The notes beneath the pieces are model-generated. The model saw only the letters and a program-made list of their open reading frames with translations, had not been told where the DNA came from and ran no database searches. A DNA stretch of 39,390 bases from Escherichia phage HF4s. The DNA is taken from sequence record MT833387.1; one strand, 5' to 3'. Position 1 is the stretch's first letter. Every line of letters starts with the position of its first letter. The translations under genes were made by a program, and so were the position numbers. This document shows, one piece after another, positions 437 to 29,198 of this stretch.

Positions 437-1845
437 CCTCGATTAATCCTATCTTTGAACCGTTCATTAAGGCGCATCGCTACAAAGTCGCCAAAGGCGG
501 TCGAGGTAGCGGTAAATCATGGGCAATTGCGAGGCTGCTTGTTGAAGCGGCGCGTCGGCAGCCGGTGCGTATTCTCTGCGCTCGTGAACTGCAAAACAGT
601 ATCAGCGATTCGGTAATCCGGTTGCTTGAAGACACCATAGAGCGGGAAGGGTATTCGGCCGAGTTTGAAATTCAGCGTTCCATGATTCGTCATCTCGGAA
701 CTAATGCTGAGTTCATGTTCTACGGCATCAAAAACAACCCGACAAAGATTAAATCGCTCGAAGGTATTGATATCTGCTGGGTGGAGGAAGCGGAAGCGGT
801 AACGAAGGAATCGTGGGATATTCTGATACCAACCATCCGTAAGCCGTTCTCTGAAATATGGGTAAGCTTCAACCCGAAAAACATCCTCGACGATACCTAT
901 CAGCGATTCGTCGTAAACCCTCCTGATGATATTTGTCTGCTGACGGTGAACTACACCGACAACCCGCACTTTCCTGAAGTTCTCCGTCTGGAGATGGAAG
1001 AGTGTAAACGCAGAAATCCGACACTGTATCGTCACATCTGGCTTGGTGAGCCAGTAAGCGCAAGTGATATGGCAATCATCAAACGTGAATGGCTTGAAGC
1101 CGCAACCGATGCGCACAAGAAACTCGGATGGAAAGCGAAAGGCGCTGTTGTCTCTGCGCATGACCCATCAGATACAGGGCCAGATGCTAAAGGTTATGCA
1201 TCGCGTCACGGTTCGGTAGTTAAGCGCATTGCCGAAGGTCTGCTGATGGACATCAATGAAGGTGCTGACTGGGCTACTTCGCTGGCAATTGAAGACGGCG
1301 CTGACCATTACCTGTGGGATGGTGATGGCGTCGGTGCGGGCCTACGCCGACAGACAACGGAAGCGTTCTCCGGCAAGAAAATCACCGCCACGATGTTCAA
1401 GGGTAGCGAATCGCCATTCGATGAAGATGCATCGTACCAGGCCGGAGCATGGGCTGATGAAGTCGTACAGGGTGACAACGTTCGCACTATTGGCGATGTG
1501 TTCCGCAATAAGCGAGCGCAATTCTATTACGCGCTGGCTGACAGGCTGTATCTGACATATCGGTCGGTTGTCCACGGTGAGTATGCAGACCCCGACGACA
1601 TGCTGAGTTTCGACAAAGAAGCGATAGGCGAGAAGATGCTGGAGAAGCTGTTTGCAGAACTGACGCAGATTCAGCGCAAATTCAATAACAACGGGAAGCT
1701 GGAGCTAATGACTAAGGTCGAAATGAAGCAGAAGCTCGGTATTCCATCTCCTAACCTGGCTGATGCGCTGATGATGTGTATGCATTGCCCGGCATTGGTC
1801 CGCGAAGAAACAGAAATATACGTTCCCTCATCCTCCGGTTGGTAA
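433..1845 (+). CDS. terminase large subunit
   Basis: 470 aa; N-terminal Walker A (GGRGSGKS) ATPase followed by nuclease-like C-terminal half; position after TerS. Confidence 0.93.
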   Translation: MTSINPIFEPFIKAHRYKVAKGGRGSGKSWAIARLLVEAARRQPVRILCARELQNSISDSVIRLLEDTIEREGYSAEFEIQRSMIRHLGTNAEFMFYGIKNNPTKIKSLEGIDICWVEEAEAVTKESWDILIPTIRKPFSEIWVSFNPKNILDDTYQRFVVNPPDDICLLTVNYTDNPHFPEVLRLEMEECKRRNPTLYRHIWLGEPVSASDMAIIKREWLEAATDAHKKLGWKAKGAVVSAHDPSDTGPDAKGYASRHGSVVKRIAEGLLMDINEGADWATSLAIEDGADHYLWDGDGVGAGLRRQTTEAFSGKKITATMFKGSESPFDEDASYQAGAWADEVVQGDNVRTIGDVFRNKRAQFYYALADRLYLTYRSVVHGEYADPDDMLSFDKEAIGEKMLEKLFAELTQIQRKFNNNGKLELMTKVEMKQKLGIPSPNLADALMMCMHCPALVREETEIYVPSSSGW

Positions 1846-1847
1846 AC

Positions 1848-3973
1848 ATGGCAGAGACATTAGAGAAAAACATGAGCGGATCATGCTCAGGTTTGACCGC
1901 GCCTATTCTCCACAGAAGGAAGTGCGCGAAAAGTGCATTGAAGCTACGAGGTTTGCTCGTGTCCCCGGAGGTCAATGGGAAGGAGCAACGGCGGCTGGAA
2001 CTAAGCTTGATGAGCAGTTAGAGAAGTATCCTAAGTTTGAAATCAATAAGGTAGCAACTGAACTTAACCGCATCATTGCAGAATACCGCAATAACAGAAT
2101 CACTGTTAAGTTTCGTCCTGGTGACAGAGAGGCAAGCGAAGAGTTAGCCAATAAATTAAATGGTCTGTTCCGTGCTGACTACGAAGAAACTGATGGCGGT
2201 GAGGCTTGTGATAATGCATTTGACGACGCTGCTACTGGTGGTTTCGGTTGCTTCCGTTTGACGTCGATGCTGGTCAATGAATACGACCCCATGGACGATC
2301 GTCAGCGTATTGCTATTGAACCAATATACGACCCGTCGCGCTCTGTGTGGTTTGACCCTGACGCTAAGAAGTACGACAAATCTGACGCGTTGTGGGCGTT
2401 CTGCATGTATTCGTTGTCACCTGAAAAATATGAGGCTGAATACGGAAAGAAACCTCCTGCTTCTCTGGATGTAACGTCTATGACCAGTTGGGAATATGAC
2501 TGGTTTGATGAAGATGTTATTTACATAGCGAAGTATTACGAAGTTCGTAAAGAGTCTGTTGACGTCATCAGTTATCGACATCCAATCACTGGAGAGATTG
2601 CAACATACGACAGTGATCAGGTTGAAGATATTGAAGATGAACTGGCAATAGCTGGATTTCATGAAGTGGCAAGGCGCTCAGTGAAGCGCCGTCGTGTGTA
2701 TGTATCCGTAGTGGATGGTGATGGTTTCCTTGAGAAACCTCGACGTATTCCTGGTGAACATATCCCCCTCATCCCGGTTTATGGAAAACGCTGGTTCATT
2801 GATGACATTGAGCGTGTCGAAGGGCACATTGCAAAAGCAATGGATCCACAACGTTTGTACAACCTTCAGGTTTCAATGCTGGCTGATACTGCAGCGCAAG
2901 ACCCCGGTCAGATCCCTATAGTTGGCATGGAGCAAATTCGTGGACTTGAGAAGCACTGGGAGGCTCGCAACAAGAAACGCCCAGCGTTCTTGCCGTTGCG
3001 CGAAGTGAGAGATAAATCTGGCAACATTATCGCTGGAGCTACCCCTGCAGGATATACACAGCCTGCGGTTATGAATCAGGCATTGGCTGCATTACTACAG
3101 CAAACCAGTGCAGATATTCAGGAGGTTACAGGCGGCAGTCAGGCCATGCAGCAGATGCCAAGTAATATTGCTCAGGAAACGGTTAACAACTTGATGAACA
3201 GAGCAGATATGGCTTCGTTTATCTATCTGGACAATATGGCGAAAAGTCTTAAACGCGCTGGTGAAGTATGGCTGTCAATGGCGCGTGAAGTGTACGGTTC
3301 AGAACGTGAAGTGCGCATCGTTAACGAAGATGGAAGTGATGATATCGCTGTCCTGAGCGCACAGGTTGTTGACAGGCAAACAGGGGCTGTTGTTGCGTTA
3401 AATGACCTTTCTGTCGGTCGATACGATGTGACGGTTGATGTTGGACCAAGCTACACAGCACGACGTGATGCAACGGTTTCTGTACTGACAAATGTCCTTA
3501 GCTCTATGCTTCCAACAGACCCAATGCGCCCGGCAATTCAGGGTATTATTCTGGACAATATCGATGGCGAAGGCCTTGATGACTTCAAAGAGTACAACCG
3601 AAACCAACTGCTGATATCTGGTATTGCAAAACCACGCAATGAGAAAGAGAAGCAGATTGTTCAACAGGCGCAAATGGCAGCACAAAGCCAGCCAAATCCT
3701 GAAATGGTTCTCGCTCAGGCGCAAATGGTAGCAGCGCAGGCAGAAGCGCAAAAAGCAACTAACGAAACTGCTCAAACTCAAATCAAAGCATTTACTGCCC
3801 AGCAGGATGCGATGGAGAGTCAGGCAAACACTGTCTATAAACTGGCTCAAGCCAGAAACATCGATGACAAAGCAGTGATGGAGGCAATACGCCTTCTGAA
3901 AGATGTCGCCGAGTCACAACAACAGCAATTCCAGTCACCACCACAGTCACCGGCAGACTTAATGCCGAGTTAA
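1848..3973 (+). CDS. portal protein (P22 gp1 / Sf6 gp3 type), N-terminus disrupted by apparent frameshift
   Basis: Longest intact ORF is 1883..3973 (696 aa), with an N-terminal region aligning to P22 portal. An ATG at 1848 with MAETLEKN lies 3 nt after the terL stop in another frame; restoring one A in the A5 run 1866-1870 gives MAETLEKKHERIMLRFD, co-linear with the P22 portal N-terminus. Confidence 0.85.
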
Positions 3974-3986
3974 CCAGGAGTAATCA

Positions 3987-4870
3987 ATGGAAAACGAACT
4001 GATCATCGACGGTCAGGTTATTGACCTGTCTGAAACACAGGAAAATGCAGAAGAAACCATCATCCAAACAGAGTCACAGCCTGAGAATGAAAGCCAGGAT
4101 GACAACGGAAAAGAGATGGCAACTGATCCTGAAAAACCGAAGAGACACCAGAAGATTACGCCTTGCGTATTGGTGATGAAGAAATTCAGCTTAACGCTGA
4201 CGATGATGATCACATTGACGGGCAACCTGCACCGCAATGGGTGAAAGATCTTCGCAAAGGCTTCAAAGAAACACAGAAAGAAAACCGTGAGTTGCGCCGC
4301 CAGCTTGAGGAAGCATTAGCCAAGCCTGCGGAACATCAGCAACCACAACCAGACGCTATTCCACCAAAACCGACTCTTGAGTCGTGTGATTATGACGAAC
4401 AGGCGTTTGAACAGGCATTGACTGATTGGCATGAGAAAAAAGGCCGTGTCGAACAGCAGCAGCAACAAAAACTACGTCAGCAACAGGAATACCAACAGCG
4501 TTTCCAGCAAAGGGTAGAAGCGCATAAACAACGGGCAGCCAAACTTCCTGTGAAAGATTATCAGGAAATGGAGGCCATTGTTCTTAGTGAGCTACCACCA
4601 ATTCAGCAGGAAATCATCATTCACTGTGCAGACGAAGGCTCTGAACTACTCGCCTATGGCTTAGGTAAGAGCCAGCAATTACGCCAGCGTGTAGCCGCTG
4701 AGACAGATCCAATTCGCGCAGCATTCCTCTTGGGGCAGATTAGCAAACAGGTAAGCCTTGCTCCAAAACCAAAGAAAGCCATCAAGCCAGAGCCGGAAGT
4801 ACGTGGTGGCGGTGCTGATGCGAAACAAGACGAATTCAACAAATTATGCCCCGGCGCAAAAATCGAATAA
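3987..4870 (+). CDS. scaffolding protein (P22 gp8-like), split by apparent frameshift
   Basis: Two overlapping ORFs (3987..4244 and 4163..4870 with a TTG start) between portal and coat; acidic N-terminus and charged helical C-terminus typical of scaffold; frame change at the A5 run 4132-4136. Confidence 0.7.
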
Positions 4871-4881
4871 GGAAAAGATAA

Positions 4882-6153
4882 ATGCCTAACAATCTCGACA
4901 GTAACGTCAGTCAAATCGTTCTGAAAAAATTCCTTCCGGGTTTTATGTCAGATTTAGTTCTGGCGAAAACCGTAGACCGTCAGTTGCTGGCAGGTGAAAT
5001 CAACTCCAGCACTGGCGATAGCGTTAGCTTTAAACGTCCGCATCAATTCTCATCCCTCCGTACTCCCACTGGTGATATTTCAGGGCAAAATAAAAACAAC
5101 CTGATCTCAGGTAAAGCTACGGGGCGTGTAGGTAACTACATCACTGTTGCTGTTGAATATCAGCAACTGGAGGAAGCGATCAAGCTTAACCAACTGGAAG
5201 AAATTCTCGCGCCGGTTCGCCAGCGAATCGTTACCGACCTTGAAACAGAGCTTGCTCACTTCATGATGAATAACGGTGCGTTGTCACTTGGTAGCCCCAA
5301 TACTCCAATCACCAAATGGTCTGATGTTGCGCAGACGGCATCTTTCCTGAAAGACCTCGGCGTTAATGAAGGTGAAAACTATGCTGTAATGGATCCATGG
5401 TCTGCACAGCGACTTGCTGATGCGCAGACTGGTTTGCACGCTTCAGATCAATTGGTTCGTACTGCATGGGAGAATGCGCAGATTCCAACCAATTTTGGCG
5501 GCATTCGCGCACTGATGTCTAATGGGCTTGCCTCTCGTACGCAGGGGGCATTTGGCGGAACACTGACAGTCAAAACACAGCCAACTGTTACCTATAACGC
5601 AGTTAAAGACTCATACCAGTTCACTGTAACATTGACCGGAGCGACAGCCAGCATTACAGGTTTTCTGAGAGCTGGTGATCAGGTTAAATTCACCAATACC
5701 TACTGGCTGCAACAGCAGACCAAACAGGCGTTGTATAACGGAGCCACACCAATTAGCTTCACTGCAACGGTTACTGCTGATGCTAATTCAGACAGCAGTG
5801 GCGATGTGACGGTTACGCTTTCTGGTGTTCCGATTTATGACACGACAAACCCGCAGTACAACTCTGTAAGTCGTCAGGTAGCGGCAGGCGATGCCGTATC
5901 TGTAGTAGGCACTGCTAGCCAGACAATGAAGCCAAACCTGTTCTATAACAAGTTCTTCTGTGGACTTGGCTCTATCCCACTGCCGAAACTGCACAGTATT
6001 GATTCTGCTGTTGCAACATATGAAGGTTTCTCCATCCGCGTACATAAATACGCAGATGGCGATGCCAACGTGCAAAAAATGCGCTTTGACTTACTGCCTG
6101 CATATGTGTGCTTTAACCCTCACATGGGCGGTCAGTTCTTCGGTAATCCGTAA
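4882..6153 (+). CDS. major capsid (coat) protein, P22 gp5 / Sf6 gp5 type
   Basis: 423 aa, directly after scaffold with a strong RBS; length and position match the P22-like coat. Confidence 0.9.
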   Translation: MPNNLDSNVSQIVLKKFLPGFMSDLVLAKTVDRQLLAGEINSSTGDSVSFKRPHQFSSLRTPTGDISGQNKNNLISGKATGRVGNYITVAVEYQQLEEAIKLNQLEEILAPVRQRIVTDLETELAHFMMNNGALSLGSPNTPITKWSDVAQTASFLKDLGVNEGENYAVMDPWSAQRLADAQTGLHASDQLVRTAWENAQIPTNFGGIRALMSNGLASRTQGAFGGTLTVKTQPTVTYNAVKDSYQFTVTLTGATASITGFLRAGDQVKFTNTYWLQQQTKQALYNGATPISFTATVTADANSDSSGDVTVTLSGVPIYDTTNPQYNSVSRQVAAGDAVSVVGTASQTMKPNLFYNKFFCGLGSIPLPKLHSIDSAVATYEGFSIRVHKYADGDANVQKMRFDLLPAYVCFNPHMGGQFFGNP

Positions 6154-23954: not shown

Positions 23955-24248
23955 TCAGTCATTACTGATAGCGCCATAGCGTGAGCGGTAATTACGCAGG
24001 CGCGGGTCAATTTCAGGGAAGTGGGTATATGTGGCTTTGCGGAATGGTCGGATTGATGTCTGGTAAATTCGCTCGCGTTCTTCTTTCTCTGCAAGCCATA
24101 TACAATGGCGAAATTCCTTTTCCTCTTTCGTTTCCTGCGGTAGCGACATTATCCGATCGTAGTTTTTTCTGAATTTATCCAGCACCTCCGATACGGAATT
24201 GCCGGAACAGCGGCGCGCGTCATCCGCACCATACAGAGGCGCTGGCAT
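23955..24248 (-). CDS. hypothetical protein (Abc-position, possible anti-RecBCD)
   Basis: 97-aa ORF downstream of the erf-ssb pair; function inferred from position only. Confidence 0.4.
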
Positions 24249-24271: not shown

Positions 24272-24654
24272 TTAGAAGGGAATTGAATCGTCGTATTCAG
24301 GATGATTTTGATGATTGCTACTTTGTTGCTGTTGGCTGTTTCCTGAAGTTGCAAATCCAATCTTTGCATTCAGTAATTCAAGAGTGATTGATTGACCATT
24401 TTGCCCCTGATAAACATCAACCCTGATGTTTTCTCCGGTAATTTCCACAATGCCACCTTCAACAAGAACACTACGGTAGTAATCCGCTTGCGCTCCTGGC
24501 TTGGCAAATACAACGGCGCTGTAGTTTGTCCATTCTTTCTTTTTGTCTGGCGATCGTAATACTGAACGCCAGCACGGATGTTGAATCCGATATTTTCCCC
24601 GGCCTGAAACTCTCTTGCGGGCTTGTTTAGTCTTACAGTAATCGAATGTGCCAT
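24272..24654 (-). pseudogene. ssb: single-stranded DNA-binding protein, frameshifted
   Basis: N-terminal ~40 codons in one frame; the other frame continues as an OB-fold-like sequence ending in the SSB acidic tail (EYDDSIPF-stop); break at the A5 run (plus-strand T5, 24540-24544). Confidence 0.75.
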
Positions 24655-25259
24655 TAAGCAGCCGCTCCTTCTAATTCGTCTCGTCTGATGTTGTAAACGC
24701 CCTGCGCTTTGTGCTGCTCCGGTGTGCCTTCGAGCATCTTCCACGCTTTGGCGAACGCCTGTTTAAGCTCTTCCACGGTGTTTTTCTGCAATGCTGCGTC
24801 AGTGAATGCTTTTAGAACCTGTTCAGGTGTAGGTGATGGTTTTGACTGCTTTGCTGCTGCGTTCTGCTGATGTTTATGCTCGTCTGTATCTGCATCTTTC
24901 GCATCATCAATGCCGAACAAACCATTGAGGCAATATTTGCGTGCATAAGAGCTTGTAGCTCCCGTAACTTGTGCAGAATCCATTCCTTTCTTGCTTTCTT
25001 CCTCTCGTGCAAGAGCGGTTGCCGTATGACTGTTTTCGCCATCGGTAATAGTTGCCGTGGCTTTCACGTAATACCGATCACCAATCAACACAACTTCATC
25101 GCTGATTGATAAAAACAGACCATTCAGTAACGGCTTAACGCCTTCAAGAATATCTTCGCAGCTTCTGTATTTATATTTACCGAATGAGTTGTACTGATTC
25201 TTTGGCGCGTTCAGATTCTCCTGAATAGCTGCCAGTCTTGCGTAAAATTCTTTGCTCAT
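24654..25259 (-). CDS. erf: Erf single-strand annealing recombinase
   Basis: N-terminal ~120 aa closely match P22 Erf (MSKEFYARLA.IQE.LNAPKNQYNSFGKYKYRSCEDILEGVKPLL...). Confidence 0.9.
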   Translation of the reverse strand: MSKEFYARLAAIQENLNAPKNQYNSFGKYKYRSCEDILEGVKPLLNGLFLSISDEVVLIGDRYYVKATATITDGENSHTATALAREEESKKGMDSAQVTGATSSYARKYCLNGLFGIDDAKDADTDEHKHQQNAAAKQSKPSPTPEQVLKAFTDAALQKNTVEELKQAFAKAWKMLEGTPEQHKAQGVYNIRRDELEGAAA

Positions 25260-25348
25260 ATGATTGTTCTCAGAATGGACATGGCCCAAGGAAATAACGC
25301 TGATTTAATACTTCAGTCTTTGCCGCATTTAAAAATACGCGAACACCT

Positions 25349-25534
25349 TCACGATCTCCCTTCTGGCGATACATTAACGCCTGCTGCGTGTACATGCGTC
25401 TCTGTAACTTGCTCTCCTTCACTGTGGTTGCAAGTGACATGAATATCTCCTTCGTTACCGATTAATTCTTTCATCTGACGAATGAATTCTTCGTCTGACC
25501 AGTTATCTGTAAAACTCATTTCCTGCGATACCAC
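25349..25534 (-). CDS. hypothetical small protein (arf position)
   Basis: 61-aa acidic ORF between kil and erf. Confidence 0.4.
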   Translation of the reverse strand: MVSQEMSFTDNWSDEEFIRQMKELIGNEGDIHVTCNHSEGEQVTETHVHAAGVNVSPEGRS

Positions 25535-25665
25535 GGAAGGTTGATAGCTGATTTCATCGCTTTATTTGCTTCAAGCCACATTTTGGAATCACCAATAAAT
25601 CGGGCTATTACTGCTTTGTTCTGTGCTGCACGAAGCATCTGGTGATTGATAGCTATTTCATTGCG
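25513..25665 (-). CDS. kil: Kil-like host-killing protein
   Basis: 50-aa ORF directly after cIII containing IARFIGDSKM, similar to the lambda Kil core (IATFIGDEKM). Confidence 0.6.
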
Positions 25666-25784
25666 CATAATAAGACCTCAACTCTTTTCCATCCGTCACG
25701 TAATTTACGGGTGATTCGTTCAAGTAAAGATTCATTTAGTTGGAAGGCACCCATGCGAGCGCCTCCCGCGATTGCGTAAATCAT
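25650..25784 (-). CDS. cIII: CIII-like protease inhibitor
   Basis: 44-aa ORF containing ESLLERITRKLRDGWKR, identical to the lambda CIII central helix. Confidence 0.8.
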
Positions 25785-25808: not shown

Positions 25809-26777
25809 TTAGTAGGTTATTTTTGTTGCGAATACTTCGCCTTTTACGATGGCTGTTATGATATTTTTAGCAACATCTTCTGATGCGCCAACCTTGATAA
25901 GGTCAGCAAGTATTTTGTTATTTACTTCTTTCCGGTGAGCTTTATCCTTTGCTCTACGCTCTTCTTCGTCCTTGATTCTTTTTTCTTCTGCTATTCTGGC
26001 TTGCTCTTTTGCTTCAGCCTCGCGACGGATTCGTTCAGCCTCCTCCTGTGCTTTTCTGCGCTCTGCTTCAATTGCTGCCTGCTTTTCTCTTTCAGCTCGT
26101 TCTGCTGCCTCTTTTGCTTCGCGCTGTGCTCGTTGCTCGGCTTCAATGCGTTCACGCTCTGCACGTTCCGCTGCGGCCTTAGCTTCTGCTTCTCGCCTTG
26201 CTGCTGCTTCAATTTCGGCTTTTGCCTTTGCTTCGGCTTCTGCTCTGGCTTTCTCTTCAGCTTCTCTTTTTAATCGTTCTTCATGCTCTCGCTTTTCCTG
26301 CTCCGCTTTGAGTCTTGCCTCTTCTCTTTGGCGGTCAAATTCGCGATCCATCAAAATAGCTATTTCATGGTCAGACTCAATTTGCTTTGCGAGAGCTTCA
26401 GCTGCTGCCTTAGCTTCTTCTTCGGCTTTAATCCGCGCCTGTTCTTCCTCATAATCAGTAAGAGGCTGGCGCGCCTTGGCTTTCAGCTCATCAAGGCGAT
26501 CACGCACTGTCTTGCGGTTGGCATCAATTAGCTTTGGAATTTCCTTCAGTTCAGCAACAAGGTCTTTGCCAAGACCATCGAGATATGTTTTCGTCTGCGC
26601 AACTTTATACGCCAGAGAAGCGATCTCCTTTCTGCCCTTTGCCGTTGTGATATCAGGCACAAAGGACATAACTTCACGTTCAACCTTTTGAAGGATTTCT
26701 TCAATCTGGTCGGCAGACTGAAATACAGTCATTGCATTTGCTTTTTCAATAACAACTAAATCTGTTACTTCACTCAT
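25809..26777 (-). CDS. hypothetical protein with long charged coiled-coil (E/A/K/R repeat) region
   Basis: Start assigned to ATG 26777 (GGAGG RBS) downstream of the terminator; ~150 aa of EAKA/ERAER low-complexity repeats. Confidence 0.7.
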   Translation of the reverse strand: MSEVTDLVVIEKANAMTVFQSADQIEEILQKVEREVMSFVPDITTAKGRKEIASLAYKVAQTKTYLDGLGKDLVAELKEIPKLIDANRKTVRDRLDELKAKARQPLTDYEEEQARIKAEEEAKAAAEALAKQIESDHEIAILMDREFDRQREEARLKAEQEKREHEERLKREAEEKARAEAEAKAKAEIEAAARREAEAKAAAERAERERIEAEQRAQREAKEAAERAEREKQAAIEAERRKAQEEAERIRREAEAKEQARIAEEKRIKDEEERRAKDKAHRKEVNNKILADLIKVGASEDVAKNIITAIVKGEVFATKITY

Positions 26778-26789
26778 ATATCCTCCATC

Positions 26790-26818
26790 AAAAAAATTGC
26801 CCTCACATCGGAGGGCAA
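26790..26818 (-). terminator. intrinsic terminator (tL1-like)
   Basis: Minus-strand TTGCCCTC-cgatgt-GAGGGCAA hairpin followed by a T7 run. Confidence 0.7.
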
Positions 26819-26965
26819 AGAAGATTTCCAATAATCAGAACAAGTCGGCTCCTGTTTAGTTACGAGCGACATTGCTCCGTGTATTCACTCGTTGGAATGA
26901 ATACACAGTGCTATGTTTATTCTGTTGTTTATGCCAAAAATAAAGGACGGTTATGCGGCCTGAAA

Positions 26966-27423: not shown

Positions 27424-27729
27424 TCAATCGTAATAAGCTGGAATTGATTTTCCGCGTTGCTTCTGGCGGCCTGAACAGGTCACACCCATTTCACTGCGTG
27501 GCTTGCGGTAGTAAATACGGTTCTGTTTAAGCTCGACTTCTTCTGCCTTCTTGCAGCGAAGGCTTCCGAGTGATGCTGCTTTATCTGCTCTGACGCAACC
27601 AGAGAGCTTTAGCGCAATTTTTCGCGCCAGTCGCTGCTCTTGCATTGCCTGTTCACGTTGAGCCTGTCTGCGTGCTCTGCGGCGATTTCTGGCGTTATCG
27701 TCAGCCAGATATGTAATGACTACTGTCAT
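27424..27729 (-). CDS. N: antitermination protein N
   Basis: 101 aa; arginine-rich motif near the N-terminus (NARNRRRARRQAQ); C-terminus (GVTCSGRQKQRGKSIP) matches lambda N. Confidence 0.85.
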   Translation of the reverse strand: MTVVITYLADDNARNRRRARRQAQREQAMQEQRLARKIALKLSGCVRADKAASLGSLRCKKAEEVELKQNRIYYRKPRSEMGVTCSGRQKQRGKSIPAYYD

Positions 27730-28096: not shown

Positions 28097-28464
28097 TTAG
28101 TCAGCGAAGGTTAAGACGAGAATTACCTTAATGATGTCTGCTACAACAGACACGGCCATAGATAAACCAAAGACAATCCAAGCCATAGAGATGTCTTCAC
28201 TACCATCGTATAGGGTTCCGTAATCACTGGTGTAAGGCGTAAATGTCGCGCCTTGATACAATAGGTATAAGCTTGATCCATAGAGGATAAATGCAGATAT
28301 CCCTTGTATTGCTATGATCACTAGAATCATGAAACGAGCTGATCTATGCGCCCAAGCCTGGCTTATTTTTCTGATAGAGATTTCGCAATAAAAGCATGCG
28401 CTAAGCCGTAAATTGTCGAGATTGCCAACATCCCAAAAAAGCTTGCTATAGCGGTTCCAACCAT
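28097..28464 (-). CDS. small multi-pass membrane protein in the rexAB position, split by apparent frameshift
   Basis: 33-aa hydrophobic ORF (AAGGGG RBS, 17 nt after the cI stop) and 77-aa two-TM ORF (28097..28330) are separated by an A5 run; adding one A fuses them into one ~122-aa protein with 3-4 predicted TM helices. Confidence 0.6.
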
Positions 28465-28481
28465 AATCGCCCCTTGCGTGA

Positions 28482-29198
28482 TCAAACCAGCCTCAGTTTT
28501 GTCTCAATTGCAACGCCTATAATCTTGCAGTTTCCATTGATTGGCACGAGAGGCCATGCAGGATTAAGTCCCTTGAGGTATTTATTTCCGCCGTCGATTA
28601 TCAGCTTCTTGAATGTTGCTTCGTTAGAGTCAGAAAGTTTTGCTATGACCAAGCTGCCGTTGATCGCCTCCCTTCCGGTATCGAAAAGAACGAATGTTCC
28701 CTCTGGAATGCTTAACCCAACCGGTGCCGTCATTGAATCACCTTCCACTTTAAGCCAGAACGCATTACCTTGAATATGCGCGTCAGACTCAAGCCAAACA
28801 TCTATGTCTTTAATGGTGTATGGTTCGCATGCTTCACACCACGAGCCAGCCTGGATACTGCTTAACACCGGATACCTCTTTCCTGCTCTGTATTCCCCTG
28901 CATACCTTACGTTGGCATCGCTCTTAAGGCTTTCTGCCTGTTCTGCAACCTTGGCAGCAATTGACTGGCTAAAATCAGCAATTGAGACTTGCAACAGTCG
29001 TGCAAAACCAGATGCAACCTCAACGTTTAGCGCGTTTCTGCCATTAAGATAATGCCCTACCGCTCCTTGGGTGATACCCAGTTCATCAGCGATTGAGTAT
29101 TGGGTTATTCCCAATTCTTTCTTTTTTGACTCATACAAAGCCTTAAGCCGCTTAGCGTCTTCCAGCTGTTCTGTCGTCAGTGATTTTTTATTTTCCAT
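28482..29198 (-). CDS. cI: CI-type repressor (HTH plus LexA-like S24 autoprotease domain)
   Basis: 238 aa; aligns along its length with lambda CI, including the Ala-Gly cleavage region and Ser/Lys dyad context. Confidence 0.92.
   Translation of the reverse strand: MENKKSLTTEQLEDAKRLKALYESKKKELGITQYSIADELGITQGAVGHYLNGRNALNVEVASGFARLLQVSIADFSQSIAAKVAEQAESLKSDANVRYAGEYRAGKRYPVLSSIQAGSWCEACEPYTIKDIDVWLESDAHIQGNAFWLKVEGDSMTAPVGLSIPEGTFVLFDTGREAINGSLVIAKLSDSNEATFKKLIIDGGNKYLKGLNPAWPLVPINGNCKIIGVAIETKLRLV

Follow-up and report, generated by a model that had tools for sequence, protein, structure and literature searches.

Here we describe a gene of Escherichia phage HF4s (sequence record MT833387.1) that lies at positions 25809..26777 on the minus strand of the window, by which we mean the whole 39,390-nucleotide stretch of DNA that was analysed. 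Its 322-amino acid (aa) product belongs to a large protein family that is strongly linked, independently of recombinase type, to homologous-recombination modules across proteobacterial phages. This linkage is new here and is the informative feature of the gene, one that was missing from the initial annotation of the window. On balance we favour, tentatively and at somewhat less than even confidence, the reading that the protein is a non-enzymatic, elongated adaptor belonging to the phage recombination module, that is, to an Erf, RecT, Rad52 or Sak4 annealing recombinase with or without an exonuclease and SSB. Such modules drive phage mosaicism and underlie recombineering, and to our knowledge Gam proteins are the only occupants of the slot ahead of them whose mechanism is understood. 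The family described here comprises approximately 5,700 clusters, lacks a Pfam model and is carried by about 10% of complete E. coli genomes, and it fills this slot whatever the type of recombinase.

In viral contigs, open reading frames (ORFs) were called in 166 loci and a family ORF was found in 139. Within this set, which holds the best 80 loci of each pattern-seeded scan, a typed single-strand annealing protein (SSAP) gene lies on the same strand and no more than 3.5 kb downstream in 128 of the 139 family loci, a raw count. Twenty-six of 27 non-redundant representatives with enough flanking sequence carry a recombination module in the next one to three ORFs, where the clusters identified by Pfam are ERF, RecT, Rad52_Rad22, AAA_24, YqaJ and SSB. 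An independent scan of one genome per species, covering Alpha-, Beta- and Gammaproteobacteria, gave a similar picture: an SSAP was assigned in 58 of 72 loci and either an SSAP or a partner exonuclease in 62, with a gap of typically 7 bp. Across the two samples the family gene frequently lies 7-10 bp upstream of the SSAP gene. Annotated phages of unrelated hosts likewise have 7-12 bp between the end of the family gene and the SSAP gene, as in the following four gene orders:

Pseudomonas phage PP9W2: family gene, 8 bp, Bet, YqaJ
Sinorhizobium phage phiLM21: family gene, 12 bp, Erf-like, YqaJ, NinB
Acinetobacter phage TCUAN1: family gene, 11 bp, Bet
Phage Lbo-JY16: family gene, 7 bp, ERF, YqaJ

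The neighbourhood outlasts rearrangement of gene order. In four of the genome loci (among L204-L208) the SSAP gene is found just upstream of the family gene, and in Iodobacter phage phiPLPE (L168) the family gene lies within the recombination module yet downstream of the recombinase:

phiPLPE, 1678-5466: recE, RecT-like bet, family gene (annotated as 'putative tail-fiber protein'), rdgC

At the recombinase position of a number of loci we also observed a Pfam-negative cluster, U271, a clade of 258-306-aa proteins of which one member was tested by Pfam. By hhalign this clade is a divergent branch of the ERF superfamily (probability 100%, E 1e-38). Its genes follow the family gene at L147, L165, L178, L181, L182, L185, L189, L191, L198, L203, L229 and L248, and at L207 a U271-clade gene lies just upstream of it.

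The identity of the neighbouring recombinase varies even among the closest relatives of the HF4s protein. Proteins at least 90% identical to it in both end-domains adjoin AAA_24/Sak4 (21 cases), Rad52 (15), RecT (4) and ERF (2). The presence of four unrelated SSAP types beside near-identical copies argues that the protein has no cognate recombinase, and it follows that any action with the module would pass through a partner that the modules share, such as DNA ends, SSB-coated single-stranded DNA (ssDNA) or a host factor.

The architecture of the protein is in keeping with the initial annotation, which had described a globular N-terminal domain, a long charged repeat region and a short C-terminal domain. 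The three parts are as follows:

26403..26777, minus strand: residues 1-125, conserved helical N-terminal domain (N-domain), conserved in 12 close and 11 distant homologues
25938..26330, minus strand: residues 150-280, predicted core of an ER/K-type single alpha-helix, part of a helix predicted to be continuous over residues 108-295
25812..25955, minus strand: residues 275-322, conserved C-terminal module of approximately 45 residues, with the motif R-x-x-D-x-x-H-R-K, a helix-loop-helix and the ending KITY

The N-domain carries the motif VPDxxTxKGRxxIAS...K...D..GKxL...D..R...R..LD......R.P....E.., whose polar pattern is invariant in the family. The central segment had been taken for a coiled coil, a description that we replace: sequence and modelling point instead to a single alpha-helix (SAH) of the ER/K class, given a regular pattern of i to i+4 charge pairing and the lack of a hydrophobic heptad seam. 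Residues 150-280 are 93% E/A/K/R/Q/D with 6% large hydrophobics, and they contain 62 opposite-charge pairs at i to i+4, compared to 29.3 +/- 4.0 in shuffled sequences (z = 8.2), with no enrichment at i+1, +2, +3, +5 or +7. Hydrophobic occupancy of the heptad a/d positions in the best register is 0.12-0.25 in this segment versus 0.5-0.75 in the N-domain. An AlphaFold2 (AF2) monomer model presents residues 108-295 as one continuous helix and, at the alpha-helical rise of 0.15 nm per residue, the rod would be about 28 nm long if fully helical. The net charge of the protein is -8 and the helix is balanced in the ER/K manner, unlike an acidic DNA mimic. We detected no transmembrane segment or signal peptide, the longest uncharged run being 10 aa.

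Variation in length is confined to the rod. E. coli variants of 245, 275, 290, 300, 306, 309, 322 and 333 aa are 98-100% identical at both ends, and the large in-frame indels among them all fall within the helix. A complete Klebsiella homologue of 197 aa (P0032) retains both ends with approximately 40 helical residues between them, and its AF2 model (predicted local distance difference test score 93) is all-helical with no enzyme-like fold. In the wider family the middle is also variable, being an ER/K rod in the enteric branch and, in most other members, an additional helical insert that precedes a charged helix. The conservation of the ends together with the freedom in helix length suggests that the rod serves as a spacer whose length is unconstrained and that the ends are the functional parts; if so, the family would provide a bacterial-virus example of an ER/K helix serving as a spacer of freely varying length. 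At the DNA level the helix contains degenerate direct repeats, every spacing of which is a multiple of 3, while a tandem-repeat finder reported just weak 6-, 15- and 18-nt periodicity. The 'repeat' is degenerate, exists at the level of codons and does not form a clean tandem array.

The C-terminal module is recognizable across the family. The motif R(84%)-E-A-[D/N](94%)-x-x-H-[R/K]-x-x-[I/V]-N is present in 97 of 113 members and continues as ...G...IP.V.I.Y, with the near-invariant histidine mostly 42-43 aa from the terminus and 91% of members ending in Y or F. The R, D/N and H residues share one helix face; in HF4s they are Arg275, Asp278 and His281. HEPN RNases carry an Rx4-6H motif, and we considered a HEPN-like reading of the R-x5-H spacing in this module; it was rejected because the model contains no four-helix bundle and there was no hidden Markov model (HMM) or fold match. 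A further candidate, that the ...IP..I.Y tail mimics the SSB tail, was also rejected, since the tail lacks the acidic residues found at the tip of SSB.

Several lines of evidence underlie our preference for an adaptor. The SSAP linkage holds in viral contigs, in the species sample, in annotated phages and in rearranged loci; conserved ends on a length-variable ER/K helix would fit a spacer or tether; the all-helical P0032 model suggests no enzyme; and, by analogy, Firmicutes phage genes in the same slot offer a precedent (PMC8093625). In the mechanism that we propose, two conserved binding ends, the N-domain of about 125 residues and the C-module of about 45, would be held on a semi-rigid ER/K rod. 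One end would bind something common to the modules, be it a DNA end, ssDNA coated by SSB or a host protein of replication or repair, the opposite end would bind a second partner, and the protein would in this way tether or concentrate recombination substrates and factors in early lytic development, with the exact length of the rod being immaterial. A more ambitious and more doubtful proposal is that the family is an unrecognised, widespread fourth component of the module beside the annealing recombinase, exonuclease and SSB, namely a length-tolerant tether that serves any type of recombinase via a common partner and raises recombination or recombination-dependent replication. Were this true, adding the protein could improve the portability of recombineering systems. 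The family offers a readily testable candidate for the slot in the genetically tractable phages Sf6, CUS-3, HK544 and mEp234.

A number of considerations weigh against the adaptor reading. Linkage alone does not establish mechanism. The locus sets, being drawn from the top of pattern-seeded scans, are not random, ORF calling and SSAP typing were done roughly by simple scripts, and all adjacency figures are raw counts; the structure predictions are AF2 monomer models only. Ten of the 72 genome loci are left with neither an assigned SSAP nor an exonuclease, and in the marine Vibrio phages 1.013.O (L084) and 1.209.O (L170), which carry N-domain relatives, no recombinase, exonuclease or SSB could be recognised over a distance of about 3.5 kb. 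Adjacency in the enteric lambdoid phages could in part be inherited early-left gene order, because cIII, kil and small ORFs intervene in HF4s. The occurrence of near-identical copies by four unrelated recombinases could equally be compatible with functional independence. No DNA- or protein-binding domain was recognised in either end, comparison of the C-module with UBA, RuvA_C and HhH giving sub-threshold hints only, and our literature searches found no functional study of the family.

The alternative that survives best, although we regard it as unlikely, is that the protein is a Gam analogue acting on behalf of the recombinase, either by shielding the ends of linear phage DNA or by blocking a host nuclease such as RecBCD or SbcCD, with the rod and end-domains binding the nuclease or capping the DNA ends. 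In many phages the gene does take the slot of lambda gam in the gam-bet-exo order, directly upstream of the SSAP gene, and the counterpart slot in Firmicutes phages often has Mu-Gam-like genes (PMC8093625). In our ORF calls, moreover, ERF, YqaJ and SSB were seen in most non-enteric modules, with no recognisable anti-nuclease gene. However, the family gene coexists with the gene for Abc2 in 42 of the 139 viral loci, HF4s among them, and at L060 and L061 a lambda-Gam-like ORF of 112 aa begins 8 bp past the family gene, between it and recT. This co-occurrence indicates that the protein is not a simple replacement for the known RecBCD inhibitors. No sequence or fold likeness to lambda Gam or Mu Gam was found, and the modest negative charge and balanced helix noted above do not suit a DNA mimic. 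The likeness to lambda Gam and Mu Gam therefore lies in position directly upstream of an annealing recombinase and in the presumed role of a non-enzymatic accessory of the module; the family differs in being much larger, with an ER/K rod, in addition to its lack of resemblance and its co-occurrence with Gam or Abc2.

We consider it rather improbable that the protein serves an unrelated early function, for example in host takeover, as a scaffold that organises the nucleoid or replication, or as a dispensable accessory, with its neighbourhood a by-product of early-operon order. The four ORFs between the gene and erf in HF4s and the mosaic boundary at the upstream terminator would suit this explanation, as would the near-identical copies beside unrelated recombinases and the Vibrio phage relatives, whose N-domain proteins are 331 and 251 aa long and one of which follows divergently oriented lysis genes. 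Outside the enterics, by contrast, dozens of species-level loci have a gap of 7-12 bp to the SSAP gene, adjacency is kept when gene order changes, and the family is nearly absent from true plasmids: it was found in 27 of 72,556 plasmid records, 26 of the 27 being non-mobilizable and many of about phage-genome size.

Less probable again is a role in counter-defence. Numerous immune systems of bacteria sense recombinases or SSBs of phages, and the protein would shield or decoy these components, or the DNA intermediates to which they give rise, from such sensors. Sensor-shielding would explain why linkage is indifferent to SSAP type; the gene sits among early accessory host-interference genes of the ral, cIII, kil and abc2 types; its length varies rapidly and its distribution is mosaic; and various defence systems are reported to target phage homologous recombinases (PMC11846896). 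Nonetheless, the end-domains are strongly conserved over three proteobacterial classes, a pattern that suits a housekeeping phage function more than an arms race. PADLOC models were unmatched save for LmuB over the helical region (E 0.03, 10.6 bits), a compositional and spurious coiled-coil match in a scan that did not extend to anti-defence families, and our literature searches found no escape-mutant or screening paper on the gene.

Finally, the reading given by most database names, a phage-encoded TolA-like cell-envelope protein, is refuted: NCBI and JGI records say 'cell envelope biogenesis protein TolA' or 'colicin import membrane protein', and the sole basis of the name is a Lys/Ala/Glu-rich helical composition resembling TolA domain II, yet the TIGR02794 tolA_full model yields 9.2 bits where 59.45 is the cutoff and covers the helical region alone, the Pfam scan contains no TolA or TonB domain, the hydrophobic anchor of TolA domain I is lacking, the gene is located in a phage early operon instead of tol-pal, and RefSeq has gone back to 'hypothetical protein' for E. 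coli. The likeness to TolA domain II drawn in the initial annotation thus holds for composition, in that both proteins have a long Lys/Ala/Glu-rich helical spacer joining two functional ends, and fails beyond it, as the 322-aa protein has no membrane anchor, TolA C-terminal domain or HMM match and is predicted to be a cytoplasmic phage protein.

Compositional misnaming of this kind is widespread in the family, which also appears as 'fibrinogen binding protein', 'putative tail-fiber protein' and 'coil containing'. The gene is real, common and already catalogued as hypothetical, and its popular name is wrong; the analysis corrects the TolA misannotation on hundreds of records, the closest cluster alone holding 471 sequences. 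The HF4s gene corresponds to gene 33 of Shigella phage Sf6, which is annotated as 'similar to phage D3 Orf53'. The same family includes the equivalents in CUS-3, HK544, mEp234 and mEp213 (as 'TolA'), IME10 Orf53 and Pseudomonas phage D3 Orf53-like proteins, and the enteric members are the same gene, lying between a tL2A-like terminator and cIII, with no difference from HF4s beyond their various labels. DNA identity is 98-99% to phiv205-1, CUS-3, HK544, mEp234 and Sf6, and near-identical genes occur in IME10, mEp213 and some Stx phages. The protein matches PHROG 1376, annotated as function unknown, at E 2e-110 (residues 1-322 on profile positions 1-362).

The initial annotation had called the gene unusually long for its slot, a description that we correct, as the gene is not unusual there. 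It is present at 95% identity or more in 530 of 5,426 complete E. coli genomes (9.8%), and relatives of the N-domain are found in 190 of the 50,697 phage records, from Pseudomonas (58), Vibrio (52), enterics, Acinetobacter, Sinorhizobium, Alcaligenes and others. An N-domain profile retrieves 5,706 clusters at 50% identity with E<=1e-3 and 1,811 with E<=1e-30. As the initial annotation had supposed, no characterised homologue emerged. No curated family was matched in Pfam, NCBIfam and PADLOC scans, which covered the protein, the N-domain, the C-module and as many as 43 homologues. Fold searches gave no characterised relative, and when PDB sequences were searched with the protein and with three profiles, every match was compositional and none had an E value below 0.004.

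Genes of Firmicutes phages provide a parallel to the position of the family. There, the gene ahead of an erf, sak4 or recT module is of the Mu-Gam-like, DUF2483, DUF1351 or Sipho_Gp157 type, for which analogous function was inferred by the authors of that study from shared position (PMC8093625). DUF1351 (PF07083), Sipho_Gp157 (PF05565) and DUF2483 share with our family the slot directly upstream of an SSAP, and in Oenococcus phage phi9805 the DUF1351 protein gp48, of similar size at 308 aa, is followed by a Sak4-like protein and then SSB. The layout of motifs suggested homology to DUF1351, which we rejected as unsupported: the Pfam model gave no match at E<=1 to the 322-aa protein or 11 N-domains, nor at E<=1e-3 to 43 full-length members, and hhalign returned a probability of 0.6-0.9% (E 0.06-0.09) against a shallow DUF1351 alignment of 5 sequences, compared to 100% for a true remote pair, the divergent ERF branch. 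Furthermore, phi9805 gp48 is without the C-terminal H...INY module. From sequence comparison, then, the family is a positional and architectural analogue of the Firmicutes slot genes and not a demonstrable homologue. Our literature searches found no functional study of DUF1351; Gp157 and DUF2483 were not searched separately.

ER/K single alpha-helix domains have been described in eukaryotic myosins and other proteins. The HF4s segment resembles them in composition, in its i to i+4 salt-bridge pattern, in lacking a hydrophobic seam and in its presumed use as a semi-rigid spacer governing how far apart the end domains are or how often they meet. It differs in that it belongs to a bacteriophage, in that the helix is predicted, and in an alanine content of 24-27%, which seems high for the class.

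The limits of the gene are supported by its signals. The ORF and its 322-aa length were correctly given in the initial annotation: the reading frame runs from ATG 26777 to the stop codon TAA at 25809-25811, which is counted in the coordinates. The ORF listing gives a longer minus-strand ORF at 25809..26831, which would encode 340 aa if read from TTG. ATG 26777 is the likelier start, since the TTG extension crosses a terminator-like hairpin, a Shine-Dalgarno sequence stands 3 nt ahead of the ATG, and Sf6 gene 33 is annotated with the same start. The two signals are:

26781..26786, minus strand: Shine-Dalgarno sequence GGAGGA, a strong ribosome-binding site by direct reading of the sequence
26790..26818, minus strand: intrinsic-terminator-like hairpin, GCCCTC-cgatgt-GAGGGC followed by seven T, with an 8-bp stem containing 5 GC pairs; tL2A-equivalent

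The same position in Sf6 is annotated as 'terminator, homology to lambda tL2A', and a gene lies between N and the terminator, so that the earlier description of this element as tL1-like needs amending. Read-through of the hairpin presumably needs N antitermination, which would make the gene delayed-early.

The opposite strand of the gene contains further ORFs, which the initial annotation had dismissed as artefacts of repetitive, strand-skewed DNA:

25935-26273 and 25972-26454 (together spanning 25935..26454), plus strand: low-complexity antisense ORFs inside the gene, from the ORF listing
26009-26182, 26283-26531 and 26476-26691, plus strand: further low-complexity antisense ORFs, from the same listing

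Alternative minus-strand frames also hold low-complexity ORFs. Across 25900-26300 the AT skew is -0.65 to -0.77 and the GC skew about -0.24, and the antisense translations are rich in S/A/L/F/C, of low complexity and wholly within the conserved gene. Given this composition and the conserved sense frame, we infer, in agreement with that view, that the antisense ORFs are artefacts of GAR, GCN, AAR and CGN codons read as their reverse complement in strongly skewed DNA.

The gene is in the early-left operon upstream of cIII, where it had originally been placed. The order is N, a 149-aa membrane-protein ORF, the terminator, the 322-aa gene, cIII, kil, two small ORFs and erf, and the recognisable neighbours are:

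28482-29198: cI-type repressor, by Pfam match
27424-27729: N-like ORF upstream of the gene, with no Pfam match
25653..25784, minus strand: cIII (PF02061, E 4e-15), 100% identical to Sf6 gene 32
25516..25668, minus strand: kil (PF06301, E 1.7e-20)
24654..25259, minus strand: Erf-type single-strand-annealing recombinase (PF04404, E 2.2e-44)
23955..24248, minus strand: Abc2 anti-RecBCD protein of the same recombination module (PF11043, E 5.6e-63)

The 149-aa ORF has no Pfam match and shares 51% identity with Sf6 gene 34, and 24 bp separate the stop codon of the 322-aa gene from the cIII ATG. As in Sf6, cIII, kil and two small ORFs stand between the 322-aa gene and erf.

Mosaic junctions flank this gene block at 26790-26900 and 25270-25290. 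The 322-aa gene, cIII, kil and the two small ORFs have 82-100% identity with Sf6 genes 33-29, while the downstream Erf is merely 29% identical to its Sf6 counterpart, and the SSB-like Sf6 genes 26 and 27 have no match within the HF4s window. In Sf6 the upstream junction carries an annotated 'boundary sequence' (bsq4).

Just 3' of erf, an SSB-like gene at 24272-24654 (minus strand) looks split by a frameshift. Residues 1-39 of a 156-aa homologue (from L069, ending DFDDDIPF) match frame -1 (24654-24538) and residues 38-105 match frame -3 (24544-24341), which locates the shift in an A-rich run (cagacaaaaagaaagaa); the final piece ends ...YDDSIPF. The split gene could be a pseudogene or the result of a sequencing error or of slippage.

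Two small hydrophobic ORFs of 77 and 40 aa lie at 28097-28485 (minus strand), between the cI-type repressor and the N region. This is the immunity-region slot that is often home to cargo or exclusion genes, and in mEp234 (L002) it is occupied by genes annotated as HicA, HicB and 'HicC'.

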